This document shows, piece by piece, positions 9,784-48,320 of a DNA stretch of 58,677 nucleotides. A program made the position numbers and the translations under genes. Under the pieces are notes generated by a model. The model saw only the letters and a list, made by a program, of their open reading frames with translations, made no database searches and was not told where the DNA came from. Within the stretch, counting starts at the first letter, position 1. Each line of letters begins with the position of its first letter. The DNA is from an uncultured Sandaracinaceae bacterium. Its GTDB lineage: Bacteria > Myxococcota_A > Polyangia > Polyangiales > JAFGIB01. Location of the stretch: positions 1 to 58,677 of the forward strand of contig CAYVFC010000016.1 in the NCBI GenBank assembly GCA_964450715.1, given 5' to 3'.

Positions 9784-10429
9784 GGGAAGCCTCCCATACG
9801 CCGGTACCGCCGGCTTGCGGGCAGCGCCGCCACTGGCAGCGCTGCGGGTTATCCAGAGGGCCCGTTGAGAACGGGCCCGGAAAAGGCGGCCTCGAGAGGC
9901 CGGGCTTCGGCCCTGCCGGGCTTCGATTGCTACGGCTCTGCCCGCGGGGCAAAGCGTTCGCAACGGAGCGCAACAGAACCAGGACCCAGAAACGCGCAGA
10001 CGATTGCGGGTCCGCGTGCAGGGCGCGGCAGCGGTCGCCGCTGCGATGGCCACCGACCGTGGACACGGACGCGAACCGCCCGGGCGTTTACGGGTTTCGC
10101 GGAGCGACAGGCGAACACAAGCGCTCACCCGCGCGCCGGCGAAGTTGAAGCCACGACCCCCTTTGGCCTGGTACAAGGACGGTTAACAGCCGTCTGCAGG
10201 CTTGATAGGCCCGTTACCTGTGCTCTACCCACTGAGCCACATGGATCCCAAGTCCATGGGGAGAGTCGAACTCCCGACACCAGGTGGTTGCTCAACGCTG
10301 CAAAGGTACACGTGCGCAAAACAGGCAGCACGCGCACACGGCAACGTAGAACCGGCAACCGGACGCACGCGCGGTGACTCCAGCGAGACCGCACGGCGCG
10401 GCACCGCGCCGACGCCAGCCATTGAACAG

Positions 10430-10501
10430 TGCTTCCGGGGAGAATCGAACTCCCGTTTCCGGATTGAAAGTCCGGCGTCCTCACCATTGGACGACGGAAG
10501 C
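10430..10501 (-). tRNA. tRNA-Glu (anticodon TTC)
   Basis: Cloverleaf on the minus strand: acceptor GCTTCCG/CGGAAGC, anticodon stem CCGGA/TCCGG with loop CTTTCAA, T-arm GGGAGTTCGATTCTCCC. Confidence 0.7.
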
Positions 10502-10607
10502 GAATCGAACGCTTTGTGAACCGGCCGTTTTTATGGGCTTTTTTGTAATAGTACGAGACCAACAGCTCGCCCTTGACGACCGATCTCTAGGAGATCACCA
10601 TCGAGCT

Positions 10608-11366
10608 ATGTCGGCCGCCTCGAAGATCGAGTGGACGGAAACCACCTGGAATCCAGTACGCGGGTGCTCACGCGTTTCACCTGGATGCCAGACCTGTTAC
10701 GCCGAACGCATGGCACACCGTTTTAGCAGTCCTGGTATGCCTTACGAGCGGCTAACACGATCGTCCGCAAACGGGCCTAGATGGACCGGCCGACTTCGCA
10801 TCGTAGCTGACGCCATTGAAGAACCTCTTCGGTGGAGGAGGCCCCGGCTGGTCTTCGTTAACTCGATGTCCGACCTTTTCCACGAAGGTCTTCGGGATGA
10901 CGTCATAAAAGAAGTTTTCGAGACCATGGAACGCGCGCACTGGCATACGTTTCAAGTACTCACGAAGCGTGCAGACCGCCTAGCTGAGATGGCGCAGGAT
11001 TTGCGTTGGCCGACCAATATTTGGATGGGAGTTAGCGTAGAAACAGCGGACTACCTTTGGCGTGTTGACAAACTCCGAAGTGTACCGGCCGCTATTCGTT
11101 TCGTATCGATGGAACCTCTGCTTGGGCCGCTCCCGTCGCTCTCGCTTAGAAGAATTCATTGGGTAATCGTAGGAGGCGAGTCTGGACCCGGATCACGACC
11201 TATGGAAGAGGTTTGGGTACGAGGTATTCTAGAGCGTTGCCGAAGGGCCTCAGTACCTTTCTTCTTCAAACAGTGGGGAGGCGTTAGAAAAAACCGACTA
11301 GGACGGTGCCTCGACGGCCGTACCTACGACGAAATGCCGGAACCGCTAGAGCCAGTCTGGCAGTAA
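10608..11366 (+). CDS. phage Gp37/Gp68 family protein (DUF5131)
   Basis: N-terminal IEWTETTWNPVRGCSRVSPGCQTCYAE signature. AGGAGA RBS upstream of ATG 10608. The longer ORF start at 10374 overlaps tRNA-Glu and is rejected. Confidence 0.7.
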   Translation: MSAASKIEWTETTWNPVRGCSRVSPGCQTCYAERMAHRFSSPGMPYERLTRSSANGPRWTGRLRIVADAIEEPLRWRRPRLVFVNSMSDLFHEGLRDDVIKEVFETMERAHWHTFQVLTKRADRLAEMAQDLRWPTNIWMGVSVETADYLWRVDKLRSVPAAIRFVSMEPLLGPLPSLSLRRIHWVIVGGESGPGSRPMEEVWVRGILERCRRASVPFFFKQWGGVRKNRLGRCLDGRTYDEMPEPLEPVWQ

Positions 11367-11370
11367 CGCA

Positions 11371-12249
11371 ATGAATCCTGCATCCAAGAACGACTGCCCT
11401 CACTGTGGAACCAGGCAAGAAAACGGCAACTGCCCTGAGCCGCTCGACGATGGGCACGCCGTCCAATGCGTCGGTGGTTGGGCTCAATGGAAGCATCATT
11501 ATCTGAGCCAGTATATCGACGCGACGTGGAGAACCCGCGTAAAATACTTGCCCCCGAACGGTACGGGAGGAGCTGCCTATATCGATCTTTTCGCGGGACC
11601 GGGCCGGGCTCGGATACGTGATACCGGCGAGGTCATTGACGGTAGCCCTCTTATCGCGATGAGCCACGAGAAGGCCCCTTTCTCGAAAATCCTTCTCTGC
11701 GACCTAGAAAGCGACAACGTTACGGCACTGAAGGAACGATCTCGCCGATACGGAGACCGTGCAGAGGTTTTCAGCTTAGACTCTAACGCTGAGACTTCGG
11801 CCATTATCAATGCTATTCCGAACCTAGGACTAAATCTAGCTCTCGTAGATCCATTTCGACCGCGTGATCTGAAGTGGACCACGATCGAGAAGCTGGCAAA
11901 TCTCCAACGAATGGACTTGATTATAAACTTCGCCACAGGATTCATAAGACGCAATCTATTCGATTCTCCTGGATACGATCGCGTAGTTGACGAGATGCTT
12001 CCCTCCGATAGCGCGTGGAGGACTGCCGTTAGATCGACGAAAGAAGTGTCTAGGTTAATCGAATACTTCCGTAACGGATTGATCGATCTCGGATACGACG
12101 AATCTTGTGTTCGTTGCATTCCGGTTACGAATCGAAGAAACGTCGTGCTGTATCATCTGGTATTCGCGTCGAAACGCGATTTAGGTACCAGAATCTGGAA
12201 CAGCATCGCGCGCTCCGACCCGACCGGACAACGAGATTTTGGTTTCTAG
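11371..12249 (+). CDS. three-Cys-motif partner protein TcmP (methyltransferase-like)
   Basis: Starts 4 nt after the Gp37/Gp68 stop. N-terminal CPHCG...NGNCPEP Cys cluster, HWKHHYL, and an IDLFAGPG Rossmann motif I typical of SAM-dependent methyltransferases. Confidence 0.6.
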   Translation: MNPASKNDCPHCGTRQENGNCPEPLDDGHAVQCVGGWAQWKHHYLSQYIDATWRTRVKYLPPNGTGGAAYIDLFAGPGRARIRDTGEVIDGSPLIAMSHEKAPFSKILLCDLESDNVTALKERSRRYGDRAEVFSLDSNAETSAIINAIPNLGLNLALVDPFRPRDLKWTTIEKLANLQRMDLIINFATGFIRRNLFDSPGYDRVVDEMLPSDSAWRTAVRSTKEVSRLIEYFRNGLIDLGYDESCVRCIPVTNRRNVVLYHLVFASKRDLGTRIWNSIARSDPTGQRDFGF

Positions 12250-12283
12250 ATACTCGGGGACCCGCGTCCTTGAACAGAAGTAG

Positions 12284-12356
12284 TGTCCCCGGCGGGAATC
12301 GAACCCGCATCTGCTGGTCGAGAGCCAACCATCCTGAGCCGTTAGACGACGGGGAC
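12284..12356 (-). tRNA. tRNA-Glu (anticodon CTC)
   Basis: GTCCCCGTCGTCTAACGGCTCAGGA... resembles bacterial tRNA-Glu. Anticodon loop CTCTCGA, T-arm GCGGGTTCGATTCCCGC. Confidence 0.7.
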
Positions 12357-12369
12357 GTTGTCGGAGGGG

Positions 12370-12440
12370 TGCGACTGACCGGAATCGAACCGGTTCTTCC
12401 GCCGTGGCGGGGCGGCGTGCGGCCGGAACACCTCAGTCGC
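12370..12440 (-). tRNA. tRNA-Gly (anticodon GCC, C33 non-canonical)
   Basis: Acceptor GCGACTG/CAGTCGC, anticodon stem CCGCC/GGCGG with loop CCGCCAC, T-arm ACCGGTTCGATTCCGGT. Confidence 0.6.
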
Positions 12441-12582
12441 AACGGCGGAGAGCAGAGGAGTCGAACCTCGACGCCGAAGCGCCTGCCGGGTAGCGGCCGG
12501 CCGTGACGCCACCGTCACTGTGCTATCCCTGTTCGCCACTCACCTCGGTGGCGGAAGGTGGAGGAGTCGAACATGACTGTAG

Positions 12583-12632
12583 CCGTGCAAAGCGGAGCGG
12601 ACGCCAGTCCGCGGAGCTGCACGGGTATAGTC
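12583..12632 (-). repeat. conserved structured hairpin motif, copy 1 (core AGCGGAGYGGACGYCAGTCCRCGGAGCTG)
   Basis: Plus-strand sequence ccgtgcaAAGCGGAGCGGACGCCAGTCCGCGGAGCtgcacgg. The outer stem and the inner GCGGAC/GTCCGC stem both pair, with covariation relative to copies 2 and 3. Confidence 0.6.
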
Positions 12633-12741
12633 CTGTCGACGGGTCGGAGCGAAGCGGAGACCCTAGTCAACCCCTACGTCGGAACGTCCCCGGATTTCGA
12701 GACCGGTGTGGCACCGCTGCCACGTCACCTTCCATTCACGG

Positions 12742-12828
12742 GGCGGAAGCCGGAGGTCTCGATCCCCATGCCTACTGGCACGCGCCCGCTTCCAACGGGG
12801 CCCGAGTCCCACTCGGTTCAGCTTCCGC
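12742..12828 (-). tRNA. tRNA-like, Ser-type (anticodon GGA?) with long variable arm and aberrant T-arm
   Basis: Acceptor GCGGAAG/CTTCCGC, candidate anticodon loop TTGGAAG, long variable stem TGCC-AGTA-GGCA. The T-arm is degenerate, so this may be a pseudo-tRNA. Confidence 0.35.
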
Positions 12829-12842
12829 TTTGCGATGTAAGG

Positions 12843-12916
12843 TCGGGATGGTGGGCTTCGAACCCACGGCCTCCTGCTCCCGAAGCAGGCGCGCTCCCAG
12901 ACTGCGCCACATCCCG
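12843..12916 (-). tRNA. tRNA-Pro (anticodon CGG)
   Basis: Acceptor CGGGATG/CATCCCG, D-arm GCGCAGTCTGGGAGCGC, anticodon stem CCTGC/GCAGG with loop TTCGGGA, T-arm GTGGGTTCGAAGCCCAC. Confidence 0.75.
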
Positions 12917-13052
12917 TAAATACTTCTAGCGGCTAGTGCTATAAGATCCCCGGGGGAAGACAGCGGCGTCAGCGCGTCCCTGAATTCTTGACCTGAATTC
13001 GCGACCGCGTCAGACGCACCACGCGTCTGTCTTCACCCCGGGGGAGTCGAAC

Positions 13053-13595
13053 TCAGTTGCGCGGCTCATCCGAGTCCTCCTCCAGCGCCCCGTGCCAGTA
13101 CAACCAGTTGGTCCAGGCCTCGGGGATGGTGCACGCGGGGTCGATCCTGAAGGCGACCACCGGAAGCCATCTGGGCTTTTCCGGCTGCTTCAGAAGCCGC
13201 ATGCCGGCCTGCTCGGGGGTCCGGTGACCCTTGCGCCCGTTGCAGCGGTAGCAGGCCATGACGACATTCTCCCACCTGGTCTTTCCGCCCTGGGAGCGGG
13301 GAACCACGTGGTCGTACGTCAGCTTGCTGAGCGGGGACTTTCTCCCGCAGTATTGGCAGCGAAAACCGTCGCGCGTGGCGACGTTCATCCGCGAGAACTT
13401 CACCCCTCGTCTGCCCCGGATCGCGCGCAACAGGCGAACGACCGCGGGCATCTTGATGGTGAAGGTCACGGAACGGACGTCCTCGTCGTACTCCTCGATA
13501 ACCTCGACCTTGCCGTCGAAGAGCATGAGAACGGCGCGCTGCCAGCTAACGACACGGTGGGGCTGATACCCCTGATCCAGTACGAGCGTTCGCAT
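13053..13595 (-). CDS. HNH endonuclease
   Basis: CQYCG...YDHVVPRSQGG...WENVVMACYRCNGRKG is an HNH motif with a zinc-binding Cys pair. AAGGAGG RBS upstream of ATG 13595. Embedded in the tRNA array. Confidence 0.85.
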   Translation of the reverse strand: MRTLVLDQGYQPHRVVSWQRAVLMLFDGKVEVIEEYDEDVRSVTFTIKMPAVVRLLRAIRGRRGVKFSRMNVATRDGFRCQYCGRKSPLSKLTYDHVVPRSQGGKTRWENVVMACYRCNGRKGHRTPEQAGMRLLKQPEKPRWLPVVAFRIDPACTIPEAWTNWLYWHGALEEDSDEPRN

Positions 13596-13618
13596 GTTGC
13601 ACCTCCTTTTTCTATCTG

Positions 13619-13692
13619 CACTGGAGGGTGCGGACGGCGAGATTCGAACTCGCACTTGCCTGGGCTTGAATCAGGTGCCTCTGCCGATTGGG
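13619..13692 (-). tRNA. tRNA (anticodon ambiguous, CAA or TCA; short variable arm)
   Basis: Acceptor GCGGACG/CGTCCGC, D-arm GCCCAATCGGCAGAGGC, T-arm GCGAGTTCGAATCTCGC. The anticodon stem has an A-C mismatch. Confidence 0.55.
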
Positions 13693-13720
13693 CCACGTCC
13701 GCTCCATGCCGTTCCTGGCG

Positions 13721-13807
13721 CCTAGTCTGGTGCTGGGGACAGGAGTCGAACCTGCACGGCCACTATGGACCACCGGAGTCTGAGTCCGGCGCGTATTCCT
13801 GTTCCGC
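13721..13807 (-). tRNA. tRNA-Leu (anticodon CAG), long variable arm
   Basis: Acceptor GCTGGGG/CCCCAGC, anticodon stem CCGGA/TCCGG with loop CTCAGAC, an 18-nt variable arm, T-arm GCAGGTTCGACTCCTGT. Confidence 0.7.
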
Positions 13808-13819
13808 CACCCCAGCGTC

Positions 13820-13894
13820 CATGCTCGAGTGCCCACGGGAAGATTCGAACCTCCACTGTACGGATTCTTAGTCCGCTGCCTCTGCCGGGTTGGG
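13820..13894 (-). tRNA. tRNA with anticodon AAG (Leu-type anticodon but short variable arm; non-canonical)
   Basis: Acceptor GCCCACG/CGTGGGC, D-arm GCCCAACCCGGCAGAGGC, anticodon stem GCGGA/TCCGT with loop CTAAGAA, T-arm GGAGGTTCGAATCTTCC. Confidence 0.55.
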
Positions 13895-13899
13895 CTACG

Positions 13900-14070
13900 T
13901 GGGCCTGGTGCGAGCGGCCGGAGTCGCACGTGGTCGAAAATGTGCAAAGCGGAGTGGACGTCAGTCCACGGAGCTGCACATTTTCGGACGCGATACGGGT
14001 CGAAGACCCTAGTGCACCGGCACTGTCCCGGGTTTAAATCGAGCGCCTCTGCCGATTGGGCTACGCTCGC
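13900..14070 (-). ncRNA. aberrant 171-nt tRNA-like element with large insertion containing hairpin-motif copy 2; CCA encoded
   Basis: Perfect acceptor pair GCGAGCG...CGCTCGC-A-CCA. The tRNA-like D-arm GCCCAATCGGCAGAGGC is followed by about 100 nt with no canonical anticodon arm, then a T-loop-like TGCGACTCCGGCC. Confidence 0.45.
13937..13990 (-). repeat. conserved structured hairpin motif, copy 2
   Basis: gaaaatgtgcaAAGCGGAGTGGACGTCAGTCCACGGAGCtgcacattttc. It has an 11-bp outer stem and an inner GTGGAC/GTCCAC stem. Confidence 0.6.
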
Positions 14071-14076
14071 ATTGGG

Positions 14077-14149
14077 TACGGGGGGCCGGAGTCGAACCGG
14101 CGACCTCCTGTTTGTAAGACAGGCGCTCTTCCAGTTGAGCTACCCCCGC
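14077..14149 (-). tRNA. tRNA-Val (anticodon TAC)
   Basis: Acceptor GCGGGGG/CCCCCGT, D-arm GCTCAACTGGAAGAGC, anticodon stem CCTGT/ACAGG with loop CTTACAA, T-arm GCCGGTTCGACTCCGGC. Confidence 0.75.
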
Positions 14150-14156
14150 ATCTTGG

Positions 14157-14225
14157 TCCCGCCGAGCGGAATCGAACCGCCACCGTCGCCCTTATGAGAG
14201 GCGCGTCCGACCTTCGGACGGCGGG
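14157..14225 (-). tRNA. tRNA-Met (anticodon CAT), short D-arm, CCA encoded
   Basis: Acceptor CCCGCCG/CGGCGGG followed by ACCA, anticodon loop CTCATAA, T-arm GGCGGTTCGATTCCGCT. 69 nt. Confidence 0.6.
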
Positions 14226-14226
14226 T

Positions 14227-14298
14227 TGCGGGGGCAAGAATCGAACTTGCGGCGCTCCGGCGTATGAAACCGGGCTGGGATACCAGCACCCTCCCCGC
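14227..14298 (-). tRNA. tRNA-Met/Ile2-type (anticodon CAT), second copy
   Basis: Acceptor GCGGGG(A)/(C)CCCCGC, anticodon stem CCGGT/GCCGG with loop TTCATAC, T-arm GCAAGTTCGATTCTTGC. Confidence 0.6.
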
Positions 14299-14310
14299 GG
14301 CAACCCGCGG

Positions 14311-14384
14311 CGTCCCCGGAAGGAGTCGAACCTTCACGAAACCCGGCTTCGGAGACCGGCGCTCTTCCATTGAGCTACGAGGAC
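14311..14384 (-). tRNA. tRNA-Arg (anticodon CCG)
   Basis: Acceptor GTCCTCG/CGGGGAC, D-arm AGCTCAATGGAAGAGC, anticodon loop CTCCGAA, T-arm GAAGGTTCGACTCCTTC. Confidence 0.75.
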
Positions 14385-14409
14385 GAAAAGATACCTGACG
14401 CCTGCGCGG

Positions 14410-14482
14410 CACCCGCGGGGAGACTCGAACTCCCACCCTCCTGGTTCGTAGCCAGGCGCTCGTCCGCTTGAGCTTCGCGGGC
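14410..14482 (-). tRNA. tRNA-Arg (anticodon ACG)
   Basis: Acceptor GCCCGCG/CGCGGGT, D-arm GCTCAAGCGGACGAGC, anticodon stem CCTGG/CCAGG with loop CTACGAA, T-arm GGGAGTTCGAGTCTCCC. Confidence 0.75.
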
Positions 14483-14486
14483 ATGG

Positions 14487-14559
14487 CTCCCCCGACAGGA
14501 TTCGAACCTGCAAAGGCCGGCTTAGAAGACCGGTGCCCGTCCGATCGGGCTTCGGGGGC
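14487..14559 (-). tRNA. tRNA-Arg (anticodon TCT), CCA encoded
   Basis: Anticodon stem CCGGT/GCCGG with loop CTTCTAA, T-arm GCAGGTTCGAATCCTGT, acceptor ...CGGGGGA-G-CCA with a G1-A72 mismatch. Confidence 0.65.
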
Positions 14560-14587
14560 GACTTCCGTTAGGCGTACGTATCGACGG

Positions 14588-14658
14588 AGTGGCGGGAGGG
14601 AATCGAACCCTCGCATACCGGACTTGCAAACCGGTCCCTGCCCATTCGGATCCGCCAC
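14588..14658 (-). tRNA. tRNA-Cys (anticodon GCA)
   Basis: Acceptor GTGGCGG/CCGCCAC, anticodon loop TTGCAAG, T-arm GAGGGTTCGATTCCCTC. Confidence 0.6.
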
Positions 14659-14727
14659 GTAGCGGGCCCTGCCAGGCGGGAGCGTTTCAGGTCACACGGT
14701 CGTTATCCGTTGTACTCCCGCAAGGCA

Positions 14728-14799
14728 TAAGGCCCGGTGCGCCCGGCGGGATTCGAACCCGCTCCACCTGATTGGAAGCCAGGCGTGCTGCCTTGAACA
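14728..14799 (-). tRNA. tRNA-Gly (anticodon TCC)
   Basis: Acceptor GCGTCCG/CGGGCGC, anticodon stem CCTGG/TCAGG with loop CTTCCAA, T-arm GCGGGTTCGAATCCCGC. Confidence 0.7.
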
Positions 14800-14805
14800 C
14801 CTCGG

Positions 14806-14877
14806 ACGCAATTCGTGGAGCCGCGGGGAATCGAACCCCGGTCTTCCGCTTGCAAGGCGGATGCTCTCCCGGTTAAG
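14806..14877 (-). tRNA. tRNA-Ala (anticodon TGC)
   Basis: Acceptor GGGGCCG/CGGCTCC with the G3-U70 Ala identity pair, anticodon stem TCCGC/GCGGA with loop CTTGCAA, T-arm CGGGGTTCGATTCCCCG. Confidence 0.75.
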
Positions 14878-14886
14878 CGACGGCCC

Positions 14887-14958
14887 CTCTGGTCGGTAGG
14901 CCGGGCGCGAGTCGAACGCGCATCGGCCGCTTATAAGGCGACTGCTCTCTCCCTTGAG
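14887..14958 (-). tRNA. tRNA-Ile (anticodon TAT), unusual isoacceptor
   Basis: Acceptor GGGCCGG/CCGGCCT, D-arm GCTCAAGGGAGAGAGC, anticodon stem GTCGC/GCGGC with loop CTTATAA, T-arm GCGCGTTCGACTCGCGC. Confidence 0.6.
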
Positions 14959-14963
14959 CTACC

Positions 14964-15035
14964 GGCCCTTCGGTCCTCCCGGAAGGACTTGAACCTTCAT
15001 TTCCCGGTCATCAGCCGAGCGTCCTGGCCATTGGA
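14964..15035 (-). tRNA. tRNA-Ile (anticodon GAT)
   Basis: Acceptor CCTCCTG/CGGGAGG, anticodon stem CTCGG/CCGGG with loop CTGATGA, T-arm GAAGGTTCAAGTCCTTC. Confidence 0.7.
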
Positions 15036-15039
15036 CGAC

Positions 15040-15114
15040 AGGAGGGCGGGCTGGTCGGACGGACTCGAACCGACTTGCACCAGACTCACATTCTGGGCCC
15101 TCGACCACTTCGGG
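15040..15114 (-). tRNA. tRNA-His (anticodon GTG) with G-1
   Basis: 8-bp acceptor G-CTGGTCG/CGACCAG-C, anticodon stem CCAGA/TCTGG with loop ATGTGAG, T-arm GTCGGTTCGAGTCCGTC. Confidence 0.7.
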
Positions 15115-15159
15115 ATCGACCAGCATAGTCGTTCAGGCAGCGATACATCCCTCGACGGA

Positions 15160-15291
15160 TTCGCCTTGGTGTCACGGACCGGAATCGAACCGTTCGGCCG
15201 TCCCACGTCCGCTGCGCGGCCGTGAGTTTTTTGGACAGCCTCACCTCCTGGGTTTCAACCAGGCGCTCTTACCGTAGTGAGCTACCGTGAC
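15160..15291 (-). tRNA. tRNA-Phe (anticodon GAA) carrying a ~55-nt structured insertion between anticodon stem and T-stem
   Basis: Acceptor GTCACGG/CCGTGAC-A-CC, D-arm GCTCACTACGGTAAGAGC, anticodon stem CCTGG/CCAGG with loop TTGAAAC. A GC-rich insert GGTGAGGCTGTCC-A6-CTCACGGCCGCGCAGCGGACGTGGGACGGCC follows, then T-arm ACGGTTCGATTCCGGT. Confidence 0.6.
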
Positions 15292-15299
15292 GATGACGG

Positions 15300-15370
15300 C
15301 GCCACGTACGGGAATCGAACCCATCTCGACCGGTCGACAACCGGCTCGCATCCCAGATGCGCAACGTGGC
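15300..15370 (-). tRNA. tRNA-Asp (anticodon GTC)
   Basis: Acceptor GCCACGT/ACGTGGC-G, D-arm CGCATCTGGGATGCG, anticodon stem GCCGG/CCGGT with loop TTGTCGA, T-arm ATGGGTTCGATTCCCGT. Confidence 0.75.
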
Positions 15371-15420
15371 TTCATCACCCGCTCCTCCAAGACCCGGCAC
15401 GCCGTGGAGGAATCGACCGC

Positions 15421-15480
15421 CGTTGAAAACGTCCGGAGCGGAGTGGACGTCAGTCCACGGAGCTGGACGTTTTCAACGGT
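15421..15480 (-). repeat. conserved structured hairpin motif, copy 3 (inside a degenerate tRNA-like region, 15371-15555)
   Basis: gttgaaaacgtccGGAGCGGAGTGGACGTCAGTCCACGGAGCTggacgttttcaac, with a 13-bp outer stem. Flanked by a Trp-like anticodon hairpin (CTCCAAA) and a T-arm-like GGCGGTCGATTCCTCC. Confidence 0.6.
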
Positions 15481-15560
15481 GGCGACGGAGCGCGAAGCGC
15501 GGAGTCAACCCCCCGCGGTCGGGTTTGGAGCCCAACCTGCGCCCAGCGCCCGACGTCTAG

Positions 15561-15633
15561 CTCCGGAGGCAGGATTCGAACCTGCGGTTTGCCGGTTAAC
15601 AGCCGGCCGCCTTTCCGCTTGGCTACCCCGGAA
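15561..15633 (-). tRNA. tRNA-Asn (anticodon GTT)
   Basis: Acceptor TCCGGGG/CTCCGGA, D-arm GCCAAGCGGAAAGGC, anticodon stem GCCGG/CCGGC with loop CTGTTAA, T-arm CGCAGGTTCGAATCCTGC. Confidence 0.7.
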
Positions 15634-15714
15634 TAGTGTGCGGCGCCCGGTCGCCACTCCGGGCGCCCGCACGAAAGCCTTCTCGATTGTCAAAGAACAC
15701 GCTAGCTATGCCGG

Positions 15715-15785
15715 CTCGGGAGGAGGGATTCGAACCCCCGTCGACTTATCCAGAGTCAGTTGTCCTTCCGTTGGACGACTCCCGA
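15715..15785 (-). tRNA. non-canonical tRNA (anticodon uncertain, possibly GGA)
   Basis: Acceptor TCGGGAG/CTCCCGA, D-arm GTCCAACGGAAGGAC, T-arm GGGGGTTCGAATCCCTC. The anticodon arm is irregular (TGACT-CTGGATA-AGTCG). Confidence 0.45.
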
Positions 15786-15880
15786 ATGCTTCAAAGATCG
15801 CTCGAACAAATTTTCAAGAATCTAAACTCCGTTTTCAGGGTGCACTTCGCCGTCCGCCTTCAACGCGGTTGAAGGCGCAG

Positions 15881-15953
15881 TGGATCCGGTGGGCGTCGAA
15901 CCCACACGCGTCCGGTTAAGAGCCGGGTGCTCTGCCTGTTGAGCTACGGATCC
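15881..15953 (-). tRNA. tRNA-Lys (anticodon CTT)
   Basis: Acceptor GGATCCG/CGGATCC, D-arm GCTCAACAGGCAGAGC, anticodon loop CTCTTAA, T-arm GTGGGTTCGACGCCCAC. Confidence 0.7.
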
Positions 15954-15957
15954 GTTG

Positions 15958-16030
15958 TGGGGCCGGTGGGAATCGAACCCACAATCGTCCGGTTAAAAGC
16001 CGGCTGCTCTTCCTGTTGAGCTACGACCCC
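15958..16030 (-). tRNA. tRNA-Lys (anticodon TTT)
   Basis: Acceptor GGGGTCG/CGGCCCC, D-arm GCTCAACAGGAAGAGC, anticodon loop CTTTTAA, T-arm GTGGGTTCGATTCCCAC. Confidence 0.7.
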
Positions 16031-16096
16031 GTTGGGCGCAGCTCTCGTTTTTGTATGTGTAACTTCAATAACATAGCCTCCCTCCGTGTGACCTGG

Positions 16097-16179
16097 TGGG
16101 GCCGGCAGGATTCGAACCTGCATAGCGACCAGCGCGCCCGGTTTACAGCCGAGTTGGGATTCCTGCTCCCCTCGACCCC
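16097..16179 (-). tRNA. tRNA-Tyr (anticodon GTA), long variable arm, CCA encoded
   Basis: Acceptor GGGGTCG/CGGCCCC-A-CCA, D-stem GGGA/TCCC, anticodon stem CTCGG/CCGGG with loop CTGTAAA, 15-nt variable arm, T-arm GCAGGTTCGAATCCTGC. Confidence 0.7.
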
Positions 16180-16960: not shown

Positions 16961-17806
16961 ATGCAACGATTGGTTAGACGTTTTTCCGACGCGGGACTGG
17001 TATTGATACCGGCGGGCCAGCCTATCGGTGGGCCTCAAAACGAATCCGTTTTCGGAATGACGATTCTCCGAAAACTTCGGAAGAACACCCGTTCTGAGTA
17101 CTTCTCAATCTGGCCGGGAGACTCTTCTAATCGTCTGGAGGTCGTCAGCGTCGATAAACGGAAGCGCCATGTCGTTTTACTGGTCCACGAGCCCCGCCGT
17201 GAGGTACATCATCGTTTCACCAAGGCGCAGGCAAAACGAACCTCCATTCCAACGGCGGCCACCGGAGTCAAGCGTAACAAGGACGGAAGCGTCGAGTTCG
17301 TTACCCTGAGCCCTTCCCGTAAGCGCCACTTTCTGTGTGGAGTGGATGAGCGCCAGCTGTTCATCGCTCAGCTGCCTCGGGGGGTGACCACCGTACGCGA
17401 CGCCCACGGGTCGCTCGAATCGGTGGAGTTGACGCTTTTTGAAGGGCGAGCGCCCGGGAAGACGGTCCGGCAGGGCGAGTGGTTCTTTCTCAATCCAACG
17501 CCCGAAGAAAGCGAGCAACTCGAGAGGACCATTTCCGATCATTCGGTGGTCGTTCAGAAGAAGGCGTCGATCGGTCGGGTCGCCGGTCGAAACTTCGGCA
17601 ATCCACATACAGCGGACGAGGTCGTTGTGCTCGCGGCACCAAGGCTGGAACACGGCCATCCGGTCCGCGAACGCCCCGACGTGTTTGTCCGCGGTAGAGT
17701 ACGACATCCGGATCACAAGACGGTCTCGTTCAAGACCTGGCGTAAGGTCATTCGAAACGCCGAAACCGACGAAGGACGGATGGAAGGCATCGACTGGATC
17801 GACTGA
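16961..17806 (+). CDS. hypothetical protein (first gene of a three-gene cassette)
   Basis: 281-aa ORF with no recognisable motif. Followed 48 nt later by two nucleotidyltransferase genes on the same strand. Confidence 0.5.
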   Translation: MQRLVRRFSDAGLVLIPAGQPIGGPQNESVFGMTILRKLRKNTRSEYFSIWPGDSSNRLEVVSVDKRKRHVVLLVHEPRREVHHRFTKAQAKRTSIPTAATGVKRNKDGSVEFVTLSPSRKRHFLCGVDERQLFIAQLPRGVTTVRDAHGSLESVELTLFEGRAPGKTVRQGEWFFLNPTPEESEQLERTISDHSVVVQKKASIGRVAGRNFGNPHTADEVVVLAAPRLEHGHPVRERPDVFVRGRVRHPDHKTVSFKTWRKVIRNAETDEGRMEGIDWID

Positions 17807-17854
17807 GCGCAACAGTACCTGTTCTCGACAACTCGTAATAGTATTGCGTTTACC

Positions 17855-18661
17855 GTGTCGACCGCATACCGGAGTCTCATGAAAGCGAGCCAAATAGACG
17901 AGGTCTGGTCGATGCTCGACCGCTCGGCGCTGGCGGATGTAGCCAGAACCGGCCCAGAGGCCATATTCGCGACCATCAGTGGTGCGCATCTCTACGGGTT
18001 CGCCTCGAATAACAGTGACGTGGATCTGCGCGGCGCCTTCATGCTTTCGGCTCGGGAAATGCTCGGGCTTCGTGCGGTAGAAGAGACGGTATCGGTCAGC
18101 GACCAGCGTGCCGGTATGGATCTAGACTGGGTTGCGCATGACATCCGGAAGTTTGCGCGCATGATGACGAAGCACAACGGCTACGTGCTGGAGCAGCTGT
18201 TCTCTCCGTTGGTAGTCATCACCACGCCTGAACACGACGAGCTACGCGAGCTCGGAAGGGGCTGCGTAACGCGCCCGACCGTCCGGCATTACCTGGGTTT
18301 TGCCCAGGGCCGTCGTAAACGATTGAAAGAGCCCGATCCGACCGTCAAGCATCTGCTCTATGCGTACCGGGTCTACCTGACCGGGATACACGCGATGGGT
18401 ACCGGTGAGATCGAAGCGAACATTCGGAGCCTCAACGAGCGCTTTCGCCTAGAGCAGATCGACGAGTTGGTCGCCCGGAAAACGGAGGGAACGGAGAAGA
18501 TGCTCCTCGCCGCCGGCGAAGTCGAACAGCACGAGCGGTTCTTCGACGAGCTCGAGAGCAGGCTCAACGAAGCGCACGAGAGGAGCCGGTTGCCCGAGGA
18601 AGCCACGACCGCGCGCGACCTGGACGATTTCGTCGTCCGGATCCGGCTGAAAAGGGCGTAG
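17855..18661 (+). CDS. nucleotidyltransferase-fold protein (PF10127/RlaP-like)
   Basis: ISGAHLYGFASNNSDVDLRGAF matches the GS-x9-13-D-x-D(E) pol-beta-type NTase signature of PF10127-type predicted nucleotidyltransferases. Confidence 0.6.
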   Translation: MSTAYRSLMKASQIDEVWSMLDRSALADVARTGPEAIFATISGAHLYGFASNNSDVDLRGAFMLSAREMLGLRAVEETVSVSDQRAGMDLDWVAHDIRKFARMMTKHNGYVLEQLFSPLVVITTPEHDELRELGRGCVTRPTVRHYLGFAQGRRKRLKEPDPTVKHLLYAYRVYLTGIHAMGTGEIEANIRSLNERFRLEQIDELVARKTEGTEKMLLAAGEVEQHERFFDELESRLNEAHERSRLPEEATTARDLDDFVVRIRLKRA

Positions 18662-18663
18662 CG

Positions 18664-19809
18664 ATGACCGGATTTCCGCTACGCCGTCATACGATCTTCG
18701 TGGCGCTGGCGGGTAGCCATGCGCACGGAACGGCTCGCAGTGGATCCGACGTGGACCTACGCGGCGTGTGCGTCGCGCCGCTTCGCATCCGGGCATCCTT
18801 CCGCGAGAGCTTCGAGCAGTACGAGGGAGAGATGGATCAGGAGCTACGGGAGGCGGTGTTCGCCGGGCTGCGAGGTCATCCCACCGCGTCACAGGGACTG
18901 TCGGACAAGATCGACTGCACGATCTTCGACGTGGCCAAGTTCGTGGGGCTGTGCGCGAACGCCAATCCGAATGCGCTGGAGATTCTCTACGCGGATAGGC
19001 GCGACTGGGTATTTAAGACATCAGCCTGGGAGCGCCTGTATGCCGAGCGCCGTCGATTTCTATCGCTGAAGGTCCAACAGACATACGCGGGCTATGCCAT
19101 GGCTCAGCTCAAGAGAATCAAGAGCCACCGGTCCTGGCTTCTGAATCCTCCGGCGAAGAAGCCAACGAGGACGGACTTCGGCCTACCCGAGCAGGGCACG
19201 CTCAACCAGGACGATCGCAATCGCATCGAGCAGGGGATCGCCGAGAAGATCAGTGGATGGGGAATCGAGACACTCGAAATGCCCAAGGCGACCCGCATCG
19301 CTCTCAACGAGCGCCTCGAAGCTTTCCGGAGCGACGTGTTGGCCGCAGAGGCCGAGGAGGTCGCAGACAGGCTCCGCGAAACCGCTGCCCGCAATCTAGG
19401 GATATCGAAACAGCTCATGGAAGCGCTGGAAGGCGAGCGAAAATACAGGGGCGCGCTCAAGCGCTGGGACTCCTACCAGACCTGGAAGCAGCAGCGGAAT
19501 CCGGATAGAGCTAAACTCGAAGCCCAGTTTGGCTACGACACCAAACATGGGATGCACCTGTTACGGCTCATGCGCACGGGACTCGAAATTCTTCGGACCG
19601 GCGAACTTCAGGTTCGCCGCCCGGATGCAGCGGAACTCAGTGCCATCCGCGATGGAGCCATGACTTACGGTGAGCTACTGGCTGAGGCCGAACATTTGCG
19701 GGAAGGAATGGATACTGCGGCCGGAAATGCGGACCTGCCTGCAGACGTCGACTACGAAGCTCTGGACGAGTTGCTGTACACGCTGATTCGTGACGAGGGT
19801 TGCTGCTAA
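18664..19809 (+). CDS. nucleotidyltransferase-fold protein (PF10127/RlaP-like) with C-terminal helical extension
   Basis: ALAGSHAHGTARSGSDVDLRGV carries the same NTase signature. It starts 3 nt after the previous stop, and the two proteins are paralogues. Confidence 0.6.
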   Translation: MTGFPLRRHTIFVALAGSHAHGTARSGSDVDLRGVCVAPLRIRASFRESFEQYEGEMDQELREAVFAGLRGHPTASQGLSDKIDCTIFDVAKFVGLCANANPNALEILYADRRDWVFKTSAWERLYAERRRFLSLKVQQTYAGYAMAQLKRIKSHRSWLLNPPAKKPTRTDFGLPEQGTLNQDDRNRIEQGIAEKISGWGIETLEMPKATRIALNERLEAFRSDVLAAEAEEVADRLRETAARNLGISKQLMEALEGERKYRGALKRWDSYQTWKQQRNPDRAKLEAQFGYDTKHGMHLLRLMRTGLEILRTGELQVRRPDAAELSAIRDGAMTYGELLAEAEHLREGMDTAAGNADLPADVDYEALDELLYTLIRDEGCC

Positions 19810-20248: not shown

Positions 20249-21745
20249 TCACCTGAAAAGGTCTTCGACGGTCACGACGTTGTCGACGAGATCCTGGGAC
20301 CAGGTGTTCCTCTTGAGACCGTGCATCGTGACCAGAGCCAGGAGGATCTTTTTTTTCGTCCCCGTCCTCTTCTCGAAGACGTCGATCTTGCTCTTCAACT
20401 CTCGTGCGTAAACCTTGTCGATCGCGAACTCGTCGGCGCAATACTTCGCCTCGCAAAGCGTGATGACTCCGTCGGCGCGATCGAACAGCAGGTCGATCTG
20501 CGCTCCCCTTTCGGCCGTCCTTCCCTTTTCGGACACGTATCGCCAGCTGCCGGTCTCAGCGGCCACCGACTGGATACCGAGCGCCTCGCGTATCTGCCGG
20601 GCGTGCTTGAGACAGACGCCTTCGAACGCGTGGCCGGCCCAGGCGCGGTAGGCCGGGGTTCGCGATTTCGCAATCCAGTAGTCGGCGGAGTCCGCTCGAA
20701 ATACTCGCGCTGGAGCCGGCTCGATCCATTTCAGGTAAAACGAGATGTATTCGTCGATGAGCCGATAGGACACTTTCTTCGCCCGGTATCCGTATGGCGT
20801 GGCCGCGGCGATGAAACCGGCCTCCTCTAGCTCGCGTAATCGTTTCTTCAGCCGACCGCCGGAGGGTATACCCGTCAACCGCACCAGCTCTTCGCGGTCG
20901 ATGCCGCTTCCTTTGCTGGCGATGGCCCGGATGACCTTCTCGTAGACATCGGCAGAGCGGAATAGCGAGGCGAACAGCCGCTCGAACTCGTCGAACAGAG
21001 AACCGTTGCGGTCGAAACAGATCGCGCCGATGTTCTGTGCCGCGGATCGTCCCCGCCCAACCTGCATCAGGTAGTAGGGAATGCCTCCGAGCGCCAGATA
21101 TATTTCGACGACCTGAACCGGGTTGAGCGACACGCTGCGAGCGGCCAGGAACTCGCGCACTTCCGATAGCGTGAAAGGCATCAGCCGTATCCGTCTGGTG
21201 ATGCGGTTGTGAAGCCCGCCCTTGGCATGGATCAGATTATCGAGAATCCAGGAAGCCGCGCTTCCGCAGACGATCAACCGTATCTGGCGCAGCCGGCTCA
21301 TTCGCGTATTCCAGTAGTGGTCGAGCGCCTGCAAGAGTCGCGATCTGGGCGTCGCCAGCCAGGGAAGCTCGTCGAGGAAAACGACGATCGTCCGTTTGCT
21401 GTGCTGCTCGATGTACCGATCGATCGCGTCGCAAAGAAGCCCGAGCGCGCTTTCCCAGGATTCGAGATCGGGCAGCGGTCTTCCGTCGTAGAAGACGCGT
21501 TCAAGCTCCCGTTTGAAATGAAATAGCTGGATTGCCGTCGAGGCGTCCTTCTGCCCGGTCGCCGCGAAAAACAGGTCGCAGCGCGGTTCGCAGTACTCGC
21601 GGATCAGATGGGTCTTTCCGACTCGCCGCCGGCCGTAGATGGCGAGAAACTCAGCGGAACCAGATCGGAGAAGATCGTCGAGAATCCTCTTTTCGGGCCG
21701 CCTTCCGATAACGGCGCGATTCGAGCTTTCAATAGATTTGGCCAC
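20249..21745 (-). CDS. ATP-binding protein, archaeal-ATPase (PF01637) + DUF234 family
   Basis: Walker A GRRRVGKT, Walker B FLDELPW, and a C-terminal DUF234-like region. Confidence 0.8.
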   Translation of the reverse strand: MAKSIESSNRAVIGRRPEKRILDDLLRSGSAEFLAIYGRRRVGKTHLIREYCEPRCDLFFAATGQKDASTAIQLFHFKRELERVFYDGRPLPDLESWESALGLLCDAIDRYIEQHSKRTIVVFLDELPWLATPRSRLLQALDHYWNTRMSRLRQIRLIVCGSAASWILDNLIHAKGGLHNRITRRIRLMPFTLSEVREFLAARSVSLNPVQVVEIYLALGGIPYYLMQVGRGRSAAQNIGAICFDRNGSLFDEFERLFASLFRSADVYEKVIRAIASKGSGIDREELVRLTGIPSGGRLKKRLRELEEAGFIAAATPYGYRAKKVSYRLIDEYISFYLKWIEPAPARVFRADSADYWIAKSRTPAYRAWAGHAFEGVCLKHARQIREALGIQSVAAETGSWRYVSEKGRTAERGAQIDLLFDRADGVITLCEAKYCADEFAIDKVYARELKSKIDVFEKRTGTKKKILLALVTMHGLKRNTWSQDLVDNVVTVEDLFR

Positions 21746-22236: not shown

Positions 22237-22816
22237 CACTTACGCTCTTCTCCGTTTGCTCTTGGCCCACTTTGTGGCCCACTTCGAGGCCCACCTCCTG
22301 TTCCGTCGAAGTCTCCCAAGCTAGTTCGGGGATGGCTTGGTTCAAGGGGACAAGCTCACCCAGTCCAAGCTCCTCGAAGTTGCGGGCGGTACGCTTGTAG
22401 CGGTTGATCATCGCGCTCGACTTGTGCCCCGTCCGGTCCGCGATCCACGACTCACTTCGGCCATCACAAGCGTAATGGTCACGAACGTCACCCGAAGGTC
22501 ATGCTGCAGCCGTCGACCACGAAGCTCTGGACGAGCTGTTGTTTTCGGTGATTAGTGACGATGAAGCCGATCGGGCATTTCCGGGGCGTTTCGACCCCAC
22601 CTGATTCCCGGCGCGGTTTTCGATATCAGGCAATGAAACGATGAACCGAGCGCTATCGAAAGTCGGCGCCTCGTCTAAGTCGGCCCAGCGTGACTTTCTA
22701 ATGAGGAGAGAAGCCGTTGGCTAAGTGTAACACCTCGATATCATGGGGAATATCGCGTGTGCGGCTAAATGTAAATACGATTGACAATTAGCAGAAACCG
22801 TGCTCGAGTGAGCAGA

Positions 22817-34920: not shown

Positions 34921-35922
34921 TTGCAGAAACCGTTTCATCAGAAATTGATCACCTGGATTGGTTGGCTGCTCACAGGGGTGGTGACGGTCGGTACTTTTCT
35001 CGACGCGGTCGGTAACGTTTTAGGCCTCATCACTAGACCGGTTACCTATCTTGCGACTGCAACTATATGGCTGAGTTGGATATTCGCCCAGGTGTTGTTA
35101 AGAAACCGACCCATCGATTGGATTACCTCTGATGGCTTGCGAATTCACATTAAACGGTTGGGAGTCGGCTCAACGTTGCCGCTCGCTGGCGCAACGATGT
35201 TGCTGTGGGTTCCGGTACTCAGTGCTCCTAAACTTTCACTAACTTGTCCTAAAACTATCGATATGAACGTGGCTACAATCGCTGGAACAGCACCACCAAG
35301 TTCGCGCATAGCGCTTTATATTCGCCCTATCGACGGTTCTTCTGAGTATTGGCTCGAGGGAAATGGTAAGATCACCGTTAGTAAAGACGGTAAATGGAGG
35401 CACCTCACGAGGTTCGGTAATCCCTATGGTATCGGGCATAAAGTCCCATGGCCAGCATTCGATGTTTACGCAGTCGCACTGGAAGGCTCGGCGTCGCCGC
35501 CCAGTGAGAAGGAATTTTCACCAAATGCGAGGGCAGTGCACTGTAGCGTAAAGCGTGAACCCGAGCCTGCCATTGCCTGTAAAGCTCAGATGCTAAACAT
35601 TCTATCGCCCCAACCGCTCTCTTGCCCGTTCGCGGCACAAATTCTAGTAGATCCGAGCTGCGATCCTCAGGAAATTGCTACGGTACGTTCACCAGTCGTC
35701 TTTGCCTGGAAGCCTGAAATCGAAGTGTTCGCAGAGCTATACCGTGATGGTCGCCCCGTAACTTCGCTGCCGAAGCAATTCGATGGCAAATTCGGTAGCG
35801 GTAATCCCTTGGAAAGTGGCCTCGCTGTTCCGCTCCGACCCGGTGAGTATCAGTTCAAAATTGCGAAGCACAAGGGCGCACCTTGCAAGACCTCTAGTTG
35901 GTTTCGTGTTGTAAGTCGTTAA
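34921..35922 (+). CDS. hypothetical membrane-anchored protein (low-GC gene)
   Basis: 333-aa ORF with an N-terminal hydrophobic region. Codon usage and GC (about 50%) differ sharply from the neighbours. Start codon uncertain. Confidence 0.45.
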   Translation: MQKPFHQKLITWIGWLLTGVVTVGTFLDAVGNVLGLITRPVTYLATATIWLSWIFAQVLLRNRPIDWITSDGLRIHIKRLGVGSTLPLAGATMLLWVPVLSAPKLSLTCPKTIDMNVATIAGTAPPSSRIALYIRPIDGSSEYWLEGNGKITVSKDGKWRHLTRFGNPYGIGHKVPWPAFDVYAVALEGSASPPSEKEFSPNARAVHCSVKREPEPAIACKAQMLNILSPQPLSCPFAAQILVDPSCDPQEIATVRSPVVFAWKPEIEVFAELYRDGRPVTSLPKQFDGKFGSGNPLESGLAVPLRPGEYQFKIAKHKGAPCKTSSWFRVVSR

Positions 35923-47030: not shown

Positions 47031-47034
47031 CTCA

Positions 47035-48300: not shown

Positions 48301-48320
48301 ATTCGATTAGTATTTTCGGC

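Follow-up and report, generated by a model that had tools for sequence, protein, structure and literature searches.

Pairs of genes encoding a DUF5131 (Gp37/Gp68) protein and a TcmP protein are already known as a widespread PADLOC candidate, and the PDC candidates of this kind were predicted because their genes lie inside BREX, DISARM or type I restriction systems (Payne et al., bioRxiv 10.1101/2024.01.29.577857). Our search of the literature found passing mentions only, and no experimental characterization, of DUF5131, TcmP, PDC-M41 or PDC-M30, in agreement with an initial sequence-only reading of this DNA, which had described both proteins as lacking a characterized function. A further link to published work runs through the COG1533/Rv2578c genes, which are LexA-regulated in several phyla (PMC3381160, PMC4951493); this regulation ties the families that partner TcmP to DNA.

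Our study reports on a copy of the pair found in a window of 58,677 nucleotides, the whole stretch of DNA analysed, from an uncultured Sandaracinaceae bacterium. The pair lies within a large tRNA array, and the features of the locus are as follows:

10429..10501, minus strand: tRNA-Glu(UUC), called by ARAGORN (Rfam tRNA, 73.4 bits)
10502..10607, plus strand: region 5' of the DUF5131 gene, 106 nt
10608..11366, plus strand: DUF5131 (Gp37/Gp68) gene, ATG at 10608 to TAA at 11366, 252 aa
11367..11370, plus strand: spacer between the DUF5131 stop and the TcmP ATG, 4 nt, read from the sequence
11371..12249, plus strand: TcmP gene, ATG at 11371 to TAG at 12249, 292 aa
12283..12356, minus strand: tRNA-Glu(CUC), called by ARAGORN (Rfam tRNA, 57.4 bits)
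12283..16179, minus strand: rest of the tRNA array, 24 ARAGORN tRNA genes plus two further Rfam tRNA-like matches
13053-13655: HNH endonuclease gene within the tRNA array region

The arrangement first read from the sequence, two genes 4 nt apart between tRNA-Glu(UUC) and tRNA-Glu(CUC), was confirmed at these coordinates, with both genes on the plus strand. The start of DUF5131 is placed at ATG 10608, where the N-termini of its homologues align; a longer open reading frame from GTG 10374 overlaps tRNA-Glu and was rejected, as the homologue N-termini fit the later start instead. A GGAGA sequence lies about 13 nt 5' of this ATG within the 106-nt upstream region, in which a consensus scan (10502..10607) found no sigma-70-like promoter, and a promoter and terminator scan around the pair returned nothing above shuffled expectation. 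The 4-nt spacer holds no clear Shine-Dalgarno sequence for TcmP, so that translational coupling of TcmP to DUF5131 by reinitiation is plausible; in relatives with the same gene order the two genes show an overlap of 4-17 nt or a small gap. All 25-27 tRNA genes of the array lie on the minus strand and the pair is antisense to every one of them. It severs the terminal gene of the array, tRNA-Glu(UUC), from the other tRNAs, while the 3' end of tRNA-Glu(CUC) lies 33 nt from the TcmP stop in convergent orientation. The spacer that bears the pair measures 1781 nt, compared with 2-710 nt elsewhere in the array, apart from two tRNA genes that overlap by 2 nt. Two genes for RlaP, an RNA-repair-type nucleotidyltransferase, lie just past the array.

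Profile searches place the pair, at the level of sequence, as the PADLOC candidate system PDC-M41, a predicted phage defence system: the PDC-M41B model matches at 3.2e-104 and PDC-M41A at 2.9e-13, with partial coverage for two of the three M41A models. The DUF5131 protein matches Pfam PF07505 over residues 5-244 of 252 (E 1.7e-95, 319.6 bits against a gathering threshold of 28.9), and its sole NCBIfam match is to TIGR04471 at 71 bits, far under the cut-off of 355. The cysteine signature noted in the sequence-only reading is present as described, IEWT..TWNP..GC-x6-C-x2-C at the N-terminus, with C20, C27 and C30 and their surrounding residues invariant in 34 homologues; a GGESG motif at residues 189-193 is also conserved. 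The structure model of the protein shows the partial (beta/alpha)6 TIM barrel of radical SAM enzymes, with the cluster loop after beta-1, and supports the Fe-S binding that the signature had suggested. The spacing of the motif, Cx6Cx2C, departs from the canonical radical SAM Cx3Cx2C; variant cysteine spacings occur in accepted members of the superfamily. On the strength of this model DUF5131 is a predicted radical-SAM-type enzyme in which the Cx6Cx2C site would hold a putative [4Fe-4S] cluster.

The closest solved relative of the DUF5131 model is spore photoproduct lyase, a DNA enzyme, and the two occupy adjoining megaclusters in RadicalSAM.org (5-2 for DUF5131 and 5-3 for photoproduct lyase). 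The likeness is one of fold only, as the spore photoproduct lyase equivalog TIGR04070 gave no match to DUF5131 in the NCBIfam search. The fold comparison also bears on a defence mechanism of the viperin kind, in which DUF5131 would use a free nucleotide to make an antiviral analogue, a small molecule that TcmP would methylate or modify in another way. Such a role would suit a PADLOC candidate with defence-type neighbourhoods in some of its relatives, but photoproduct lyase outscores viperin for DUF5131 and no nucleotide-binding features speak for such a conversion, and we give this mechanism very little chance of being correct.

TcmP matches NCBIfam TIGR04474 over residues 37-280 (142 bits, cut-off 53), and its model adopts the class I Rossmann-like SAM-methyltransferase fold: motif I has the G-x-G form and beta-2 is followed by an acidic residue. 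The three-cysteine N-terminus and the IDLFAGPG motif picked out in the first reading are both present. Motif I, (I)DLFAGPG, places DLFAGPG at residues 72-78, of which G76, P77 and G78 show no variation across 40 homologues; a GSPLIA segment follows at residues 91-96 and a motif IV-like D160-P161-F162 further on. N-terminal cysteines occur at positions 9, 12, 21 and 33; in the 40 close homologues C21 is invariant, C9 and C33 are kept in at least 90% and C12 is not conserved. About half of the wider TcmP family lacks the C9/C21/C33 triad, and for this reason the element was set aside as an essential Fe-S site.

Structure comparison of the model bears out the SAM-binding-type Rossmann fold predicted from motif I. 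The closest solved folds are the RNA methyltransferases RlmJ, which is the best, Trm1, TrmR and CmoA. An hhalign comparison with RlmJ aligns GSPLIA in both proteins and sets D160-P161 of TcmP on D164-P165 of RlmJ, at a probability of only 37%. Weak matches to the RlmJ family PF04378 were found in 7 of 40 TcmP homologues (best 6.6e-06), and the window protein itself gave none even at E up to 1. While D160 and P161 are invariant, the aromatic position of the DPPY motif is not conserved, and the family carries DPF, DPY, DPT or DPP followed by G, R or A. The lack of this conserved aromatic opens the possibility that TcmP may bind SAM but transfer no methyl group. As the best structural neighbour is an RNA methyltransferase, the fold of TcmP does not favour a DNA target. 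The RlmJ family being the best match of TcmP in both structure and profile, the pair might be a general RNA modification system acting on rRNA or tRNA independently of the array, with TcmP as an RlmJ-type base methyltransferase and DUF5131 extending or altering its mark; this explanation is weighed below against the partners and the distribution of the pair.

We surveyed 80 genomic TcmP loci, covering 1.15 Mb in total, for the genes beside TcmP. The conserved pairing of the two genes was confirmed: about 56 of the 80 loci have DUF5131 adjacent, in either order or orientation (two of these are cut by a contig end). A PA0069/Rv2578c-like radical SAM protein is the partner in 11 loci and a photoproduct-lyase-like radical SAM protein, matching the photoproduct-lyase model at 1.5e-24, in seven; one locus (L054) has a Cx3Cx2C protein in this position, and in the remaining five the contig ends too near TcmP for the partner to be judged. 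The pairing of TcmP with a radical-SAM-type partner is thus obligate wherever the flanks are readable in these 80 loci. No third conserved gene lies beside the pair in the 80 loci, nor among 119 neighbour genes from 30 of them compared with Pfam and PADLOC. In phages the relation is asymmetric, with 180 records that contain DUF5131 and only three that contain TcmP, so that DUF5131 can evidently work without TcmP. A scan of GTDB genomes found no near relative of the source organism, the best TcmP match reaching 51% identity, and exact-protein look-ups brought up only short contigs from that organism itself.

The exchange of partners raises the possibility of DNA-lesion repair, in which DUF5131, in the manner of spore photoproduct lyase, would undo a photoproduct-like or other radical-repairable lesion and TcmP would recognize or flip the damaged base. 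The seven photoproduct-lyase-like partners and the presence of COG1533 relatives in SOS regulons (PMC3381160, PMC4951493) point in this direction. The pair, however, is patchy, mobile and foreign in composition, the window is free of DNA-repair neighbours, several relatives of the pair neighbour restriction, McrBC or toxin-antitoxin genes, and a prophage carries it within its lysogeny module. We consider repair a quite improbable function.

These properties are apparent in the composition and the surroundings of the genes. The GC3 values of the pair, 0.545 and 0.553, stand against 0.65-0.87 in the neighbouring genes, which marks the pair as compositionally foreign and apparently acquired by horizontal transfer. 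In the window the cassette is flanked by no integrase, attachment-site repeat or target-site duplication; a repeat search around it found tRNA-internal similarities only (T-arm motifs, and the 3' trailers of the two Glu tRNAs, which resemble each other), with no exact tRNA repeats of at least 12 nt. The two-gene cassette itself contains no nuclease or other obvious effector. Among the relatives, one adjoins a type I restriction system, an ApeA-HEPN gene and Nmad2/3 genes, and others adjoin McrBC or toxin-antitoxin genes. TcmP occurs on 15 plasmids, eight of them conjugative, and a mobilizable plasmid shows the gene order DNA methyltransferase, helicase, GIY-YIG nuclease, Gp37/68, TcmP, TcmP, PIN. 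In Gordonia phage BaxterFox, TcmP is found in the lysogeny module of the prophage, flanked by the immunity repressor and the integrase; phage records also place DUF5131 next to genes for a DNA polymerase and a DNA methyltransferase. At 30 loci the two closest genes on either side are for the most part ordinary, with scattered defence genes, an uncontrolled count that does not demonstrate defence-island enrichment.

This distribution speaks to the general RNA modification set out above. Sporadic and horizontally transferred occurrence, extending to plasmids and a prophage lysogeny module, is atypical of enzymes that modify the translation apparatus; furthermore, the families that replace DUF5131 are photoproduct-lyase-related and LexA-regulated, and the phage DUF5131 sits beside genes of DNA replication and methylation. 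Despite the RlmJ-like fold of TcmP, we therefore regard an array-independent RNA target as unlikely.

The position of the pair had led the sequence-only reading to suggest that the two proteins act on the tRNAs of the array, and in the form considered here the pair would modify these tRNAs, for example to protect them against anticodon nucleases. Several observations speak for this idea: the closest solved folds to TcmP are RNA methyltransferases, radical SAM enzymes do modify tRNA, with wybutosine synthesis as a precedent in which a methyltransferase is followed by a radical SAM enzyme, and the RlaP genes lie just beyond the array. Our survey of relatives does not support it. No tRNA array was found in the 80 TcmP loci or in 12 further scanned contigs of relatives, and tRNA genes are absent altogether from the 1.5-9.6 kb contigs of the three nearest relatives, at 57-60% identity. 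The density of tRNA genes over the 80 loci, 9.6 per Mb, is one commonly seen in bacterial genomes. A single tRNA does lie within 3.4 kb of the pair in 10 of the 80 loci (permutation P ~0.004), so that a survey of genomic context reveals proximity to individual tRNA genes but not to arrays. These ten tRNAs represent nine amino-acid identities and nine of them have the 3' end towards the pair, a pattern which fits the insertion of islands beside tRNA genes and not the relation of an enzyme to its substrate; exact repeats of the neighbouring tRNA of at least 13 nt are absent in all ten loci.

The antisense orientation of the pair, its foreign GC3 and the recruitment of alternative TcmP partners from the DNA-linked photoproduct-lyase and COG1533 families also stand against a role in modifying the array, which we judge to be a highly implausible function. 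Because the survey of relatives shows no such association, the array position provides no evidence of a tRNA substrate: the placement of the pair is incidental and uninformative on its target, and the array would be a landing site. A metagenome search with the RlaP protein for a sister array lacking the insertion gave one short contig (L088), which carries a related RlaP gene and a different, shorter tRNA cluster ending at the contig edge; the empty site was not recovered.

Taken together, our data lead us to propose that the locus carries a horizontally acquired, self-contained two-gene DUF5131-TcmP cassette of the PDC-M41 type, which would function in nucleic-acid modification and for which the array is the landing site and not the substrate; we give this reading an even chance of being right. 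The cassette lies antisense within the array of 25-27 genes, in the spacer that adjoins the 3' end of tRNA-Glu(CUC). DUF5131 and TcmP would act jointly on one nucleic-acid base, which we infer to be located in DNA sooner than in RNA. In this model, TcmP would bind SAM and a flipped-out base, and either methylate the base or present it, whereupon DUF5131 would cleave SAM reductively and the resulting 5'-deoxyadenosyl radical would attack the same site. The covalent mark would help to tell self from non-self or to interfere with invading DNA, in keeping with what a defence-island or mobile-element module would do. Our best reading of the pair is a mobile two-enzyme module for nucleic-acid modification, probably of DNA, and the earlier alternative suggestion, an action on nucleic acid of the host or a phage, agrees with this proposal.

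A broader proposal, which we put forward tentatively and consider doubtful, is that the DUF5131-TcmP pair and its variants, with a photoproduct-lyase-like or PA0069-like radical SAM protein in place of DUF5131, constitute an unrecognized class of mobile, radical-SAM-based nucleic-acid modification systems. A protein with a methyltransferase fold would cooperate with a radical enzyme of the photoproduct-lyase type to build a new hypermodified or cross-linked DNA base, in the service of immunity or counter-immunity. The elements that carry these genes would favour the 3' side of tRNA genes, which would account for the place of the present copy in a tRNA array.

The result for this locus is mainly corrective: the position of a gene inside a tRNA array is here not evidence of a tRNA substrate. 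The window copy adds one more member to the family and an unusual insertion site, and little else. For the family the question is sharpened to that of a two-component module in which an RlmJ-like, SAM-binding TcmP always accompanies a radical SAM enzyme of the photoproduct-lyase clade; should the pair make a new DNA modification, or represent a new kind of defence, it would be of real interest.

Comparison with the known systems highlights what is shared and what is particular to this pair. The nearest counterpart is the DUF5131-TcmP pair itself, with the PADLOC phage-defence candidates PDC-M41 and PDC-M30. The PF07505 and TIGR04474 HMMs both score above cut-off here, and the genes are adjacent and co-oriented as in Myxococcota relatives; whereas PDC systems are embedded in or near BREX, DISARM or type I restriction systems, the window copy lies antisense inside a tRNA array. 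RlmJ, the 23S rRNA m6A2030 methyltransferase (PF04378; PDB 6qe5, 2oo3), and TcmP have two elements in common, the GSPLIA segment and D-P in motif IV. The two differ in motif I, where TcmP has a canonical G-x-G (FAGPG) and RlmJ has FNRSG, and TcmP lacks the aromatic residue of the RlmJ DPPY, possesses an additional Cys-rich N-terminal element and is always paired with a radical-SAM-type gene. The order of reactions proposed for the pair has a precedent in the synthesis of wybutosine in tRNA, where Trm5 methylates the base and the radical SAM enzyme TYW1 then acts on the methylated product. This is a mechanistic analogy only, as TYW1 has no sequence relationship with the pair, and wybutosine synthesis is a conserved tRNA pathway while the pair is mobile, sporadic and without a tie to any particular tRNA. 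Spore photoproduct lyase (SplB; PDB 4fhc) resembles DUF5131 in fold at 11% sequence identity; it is longer, at 340 aa compared with 252 aa, and the photoproduct-lyase and COG1533 families carry Cx3Cx2C in place of Cx6Cx2C. In 18 of the 80 loci TcmP is partnered not by DUF5131 but by a COG1533/PA0069/Rv2578c or photoproduct-lyase-like radical SAM protein.

The gene pair is a further member of an already known, bioinformatically defined gene pair, and what is unusual about the copy in the window is its insertion site. Two plus-strand ORFs, separated by 4 nt, occupy the 1781-nt spacer between two tRNA-Glu genes.

10608 (ATG) to 11366 (TAA), plus strand: DUF5131 gene, 252 aa
11371 (ATG) to 12249 (TAG), plus strand: TcmP gene, 292 aa
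10429-10501, minus strand: tRNA-Glu(UUC), ARAGORN
12283-12356, minus strand: tRNA-Glu(CUC), ARAGORN
10429-16179, minus strand: tRNA array, 25 ARAGORN tRNA genes, all on this strand
14588-14658, minus strand: Rfam-only tRNA-like match, 39.5 bits, no ARAGORN call
15170-15291, minus strand: Rfam-only tRNA-like match, 43.8 bits, no ARAGORN call
10218-10283, minus strand: tRNA-like part of YrlA (Y RNA-like), sub-threshold in Rfam (35.3 bits vs gathering score 69, E 2.6e-05)
13053-13655, minus strand: HNH endonuclease gene (PF14279, PF01844), in the array, flanked by tRNA-Pro and tRNA-Leu

The first ORF encodes a full-length DUF5131/Gp37-Gp68 protein (PF07505, E 1.7e-95; PHROG 2045 also matched) and the second a TcmP protein (TIGR04474, 142 bits; cut-off 53); by HMM the pair qualifies for PF07505, TIGR04474 and the candidate defence system PDC-M41. 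The ORFs, the gap and these matches bear out the identity and placement proposed in the sequence-only reading, and the motifs quoted there are present in both proteins and conserved (34 DUF5131 and 40 TcmP homologues).

That reading also held that the pair, lying inside the array, may modify the array's tRNAs. The pair is antisense to every one of them, and its GC3 (0.545 for DUF5131, 0.553 for TcmP) departs from that of neighbouring genes (0.65-0.87) and from that of the host-like HNH gene inside the array (0.83). For a survey of genomic context, a TcmP alignment was scanned against one genome per GTDB species. The 80 loci recovered span 1.15 Mb and represent Myxococcota, Chloroflexota, Planctomycetota, Omnitrophota, Nitrospirota, Acidobacteriota and Proteobacteria, as well as one archaeon. 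None of the 80 contains a tRNA array, that is, more than one tRNA gene; ten have a single tRNA gene, and the overall density, 9.6 tRNAs per Mb, is not unusual for a bacterial genome. No tRNA was found beside the three closest relatives of the window TcmP (57-60% identity; contigs of 1.5-9.6 kb). Because its relatives lack arrays, the pair is antisense and its GC3 deviates, we conclude that the pair was inserted as foreign DNA and that its setting in an array is particular to this genome; the proposed link to the array is not supported, and modification of its tRNAs is highly improbable.

The array itself includes tRNA-Ile(UAU), three Leu, three Arg, two Lys, two Gly and two Glu genes, and its two tRNA-Met(CAU) genes overlap by 2 nt. 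Low scores against the Rfam tRNA model (36-45 bits) suggest that several of its tRNAs are divergent, and the match at 15170-15291, 122 nt long, may contain an insertion or intron. The YrlA-like match overlaps, at 10258-10276, a 19-nt repeat from the T-arm region of tRNA-Glu and could represent a tRNA that has degenerated, or a tRNA-like element, just past the array end; a similar T-arm-like repeat lies at 12550-12572. The longest ORF of the HNH gene overlaps tRNA-Leu(CAA) by 29 nt.

The ten single tRNAs (L003, L005, L013, L022, L028, L031, L051, L057, L068 and L069) all lie 79-3425 nt from the module, though flanks reach up to 10 kb, and no tRNA was found further out in any flank of the surveyed loci. 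Permutation gave P 0.004 for the mean distance and P 0.00025 for the maximum distance, the latter with a threshold chosen after the data were seen. The tRNA 3' end faces the module in nine of the ten, and nine different amino-acid identities are represented. This pattern points to small islands having inserted next to tRNA genes rather than to an enzyme located near its substrate; it is offered only as a suggestion, since a search for attachment-site repeats at the tRNA-adjacent loci found none. The 33 nt between the TcmP stop and the 3' end of tRNA-Glu(CUC) in the window fit the same pattern.

Several further features of the window lie outside the pair.

16961-19809, plus strand: operon of a 281-aa ORF and two RlaP genes (PF10127, RNA-repair-pathway Pol-beta nucleotidyltransferase)
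20249-21745, minus strand: ATPase gene (PF01637, ATPase_2), just past the RlaP operon
22781-24001, plus strand: ATPase gene (AAA_14 and DUF4143), just past the RlaP operon
38620-39747, plus strand: radical SAM/SPASM-domain gene (PF04055, PF13186), unrelated to the pair

The RlaP operon is transcribed away from the array. On metagenome contig L088, too, a related RlaP (N-terminus 73% identical) occurs with a tRNA cluster, of five genes upstream, which hints at a tRNA-array/RlaP association. The radical SAM/SPASM gene may belong to a peptide-maturation cluster, and stretches of low GC3 at 34921-35922 and about 46000-51700 (0.50 and 0.57-0.61, against 0.7-0.85 for most genes) may be further horizontally acquired segments.

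Across the 80 loci a DUF5131 gene adjoins TcmP in about 56 (two are truncated where the contig ends), in upstream, downstream, divergent or convergent position. At 11 loci TcmP instead adjoins a radical SAM relative of the PA0069, Rv2578c and 'mobile pair B' families, at seven a photoproduct-lyase-like radical SAM protein (TIGR04070 at 1.5e-24) and at L054 another Cx3Cx2C protein; the remaining five loci end too near TcmP for a partner call. Since the partner, though variable, is of radical-SAM type at every locus with readable flanks, and no third gene recurs around the modules in the survey or the neighbour scan, TcmP obligately pairs with radical SAM enzymes from the photoproduct-lyase clade, in a module of two components. 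In several phyla COG1533/Rv2578c relatives are under LexA control (PMC3381160, PMC4951493), which ties this clade to DNA. That the pair repairs DNA lesions is quite unlikely.

Fifteen plasmids carry TcmP, 8 of them conjugative. On the mobilizable Acidovorax sp. T1 plasmid NZ_CP021649.1 (L108) genes for a DNA methyltransferase, DEAD-box helicase, GIY-YIG nuclease, Gp37/68, TcmP, TcmP and PIN stand in this order, with an integrase and a Tn3-family transposase beyond them; the tandem TcmP genes (427 and 281 aa) come after the single Gp37/Gp68 gene, and the run from DNA methyltransferase to PIN apparently forms one operon, an enlarged form of the module. Among phage records DUF5131 occurs in 180, mostly of actinophages, and TcmP in only 3. 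The temperate Gordonia phage BaxterFox carries both genes in the interval from immunity repressor to integrase, which in actinophages is a frequent site of lysogeny-expressed defence genes. The deposited annotation (KU963263.1) probably misses a real DUF5131 gene there, at 32200-32928 (56% identity, E 2e-73), opposite in strand to annotated genes 39-41. Other relatives adjoin a type I restriction system with ApeA-HEPN and Nmad2/3 genes, adjoin McrBC, or sit among toxin-antitoxin pairs. In PADLOC the pair matches PDC-M41 and PDC-M30, and PDC candidates are predictions made by guilt-by-embedding within BREX, DISARM and type I restriction loci (bioRxiv 10.1101/2024.01.29.577857). This context should not be over-read, since the two nearest neighbours per side at 30 loci, counted with no matched control set, are mostly ordinary genes with defence genes scattered among them. 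That this radical-SAM-containing pair makes a viperin-like nucleotide analogue is very unlikely.

The Fe-S site and SAM methyltransferase fold first proposed from motifs both stand, on the strength of structure models, conserved motifs and placement at RadicalSAM.org. DUF5131 is modelled as a partial (beta/alpha)6 barrel (pLDDT 87) with a putative Fe-S site, C20-x6-C27-x2-C30, invariant among 34 homologues; the family forms megacluster 5-2, beside photoproduct lyase in 5-3 (PMC9477430). TcmP is confidently modelled with a class I Rossmann methyltransferase fold (pLDDT 94.6, pTM 0.91). DLFAGPG is invariant, and N-terminal C9, C21 and C33 conserved, across 40 homologues; the 80 genomic homologues retain motif I (Y/F-I/V-D-L-F-A-G-P-G) and the D-P of motif IV, and do not retain the aromatic residue of DPPY. 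About half of the family lacks the Cys triad, which is an accessory element and no universal catalytic site.

We propose that both proteins would act on the same nucleic-acid base: TcmP would bind SAM and a flipped base, which it would methylate or present, and DUF5131 would apply 5'-deoxyadenosyl-radical chemistry to that base. DNA is the more probable target, ahead of RNA, and the pair would probably serve to mark self against non-self or to interfere with foreign DNA; we judge the chances of this joint reading to be evenly balanced. The family merits experiments, and the window copy opens no new question.

The module is mobile and consists of two genes, for an RlmJ-like protein that binds SAM and for a radical SAM enzyme resembling photoproduct lyase. 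Both likenesses are of fold only; the window DUF5131 fails HMM membership of photoproduct lyase and the window TcmP, which has no PF04378 match, fails that of RlmJ. RlmJ acts on 23S rRNA, and that the pair modifies RNA in general is unlikely. Compared by profile, TcmP and E. coli RlmJ match weakly overall (probability 37%), and PF04378 matches weakly in 7 of 40 TcmP homologues; the alignment nonetheless shares a GSPLIA segment and places TcmP D160-P161 opposite D164-P165 of the RlmJ DPPY motif.
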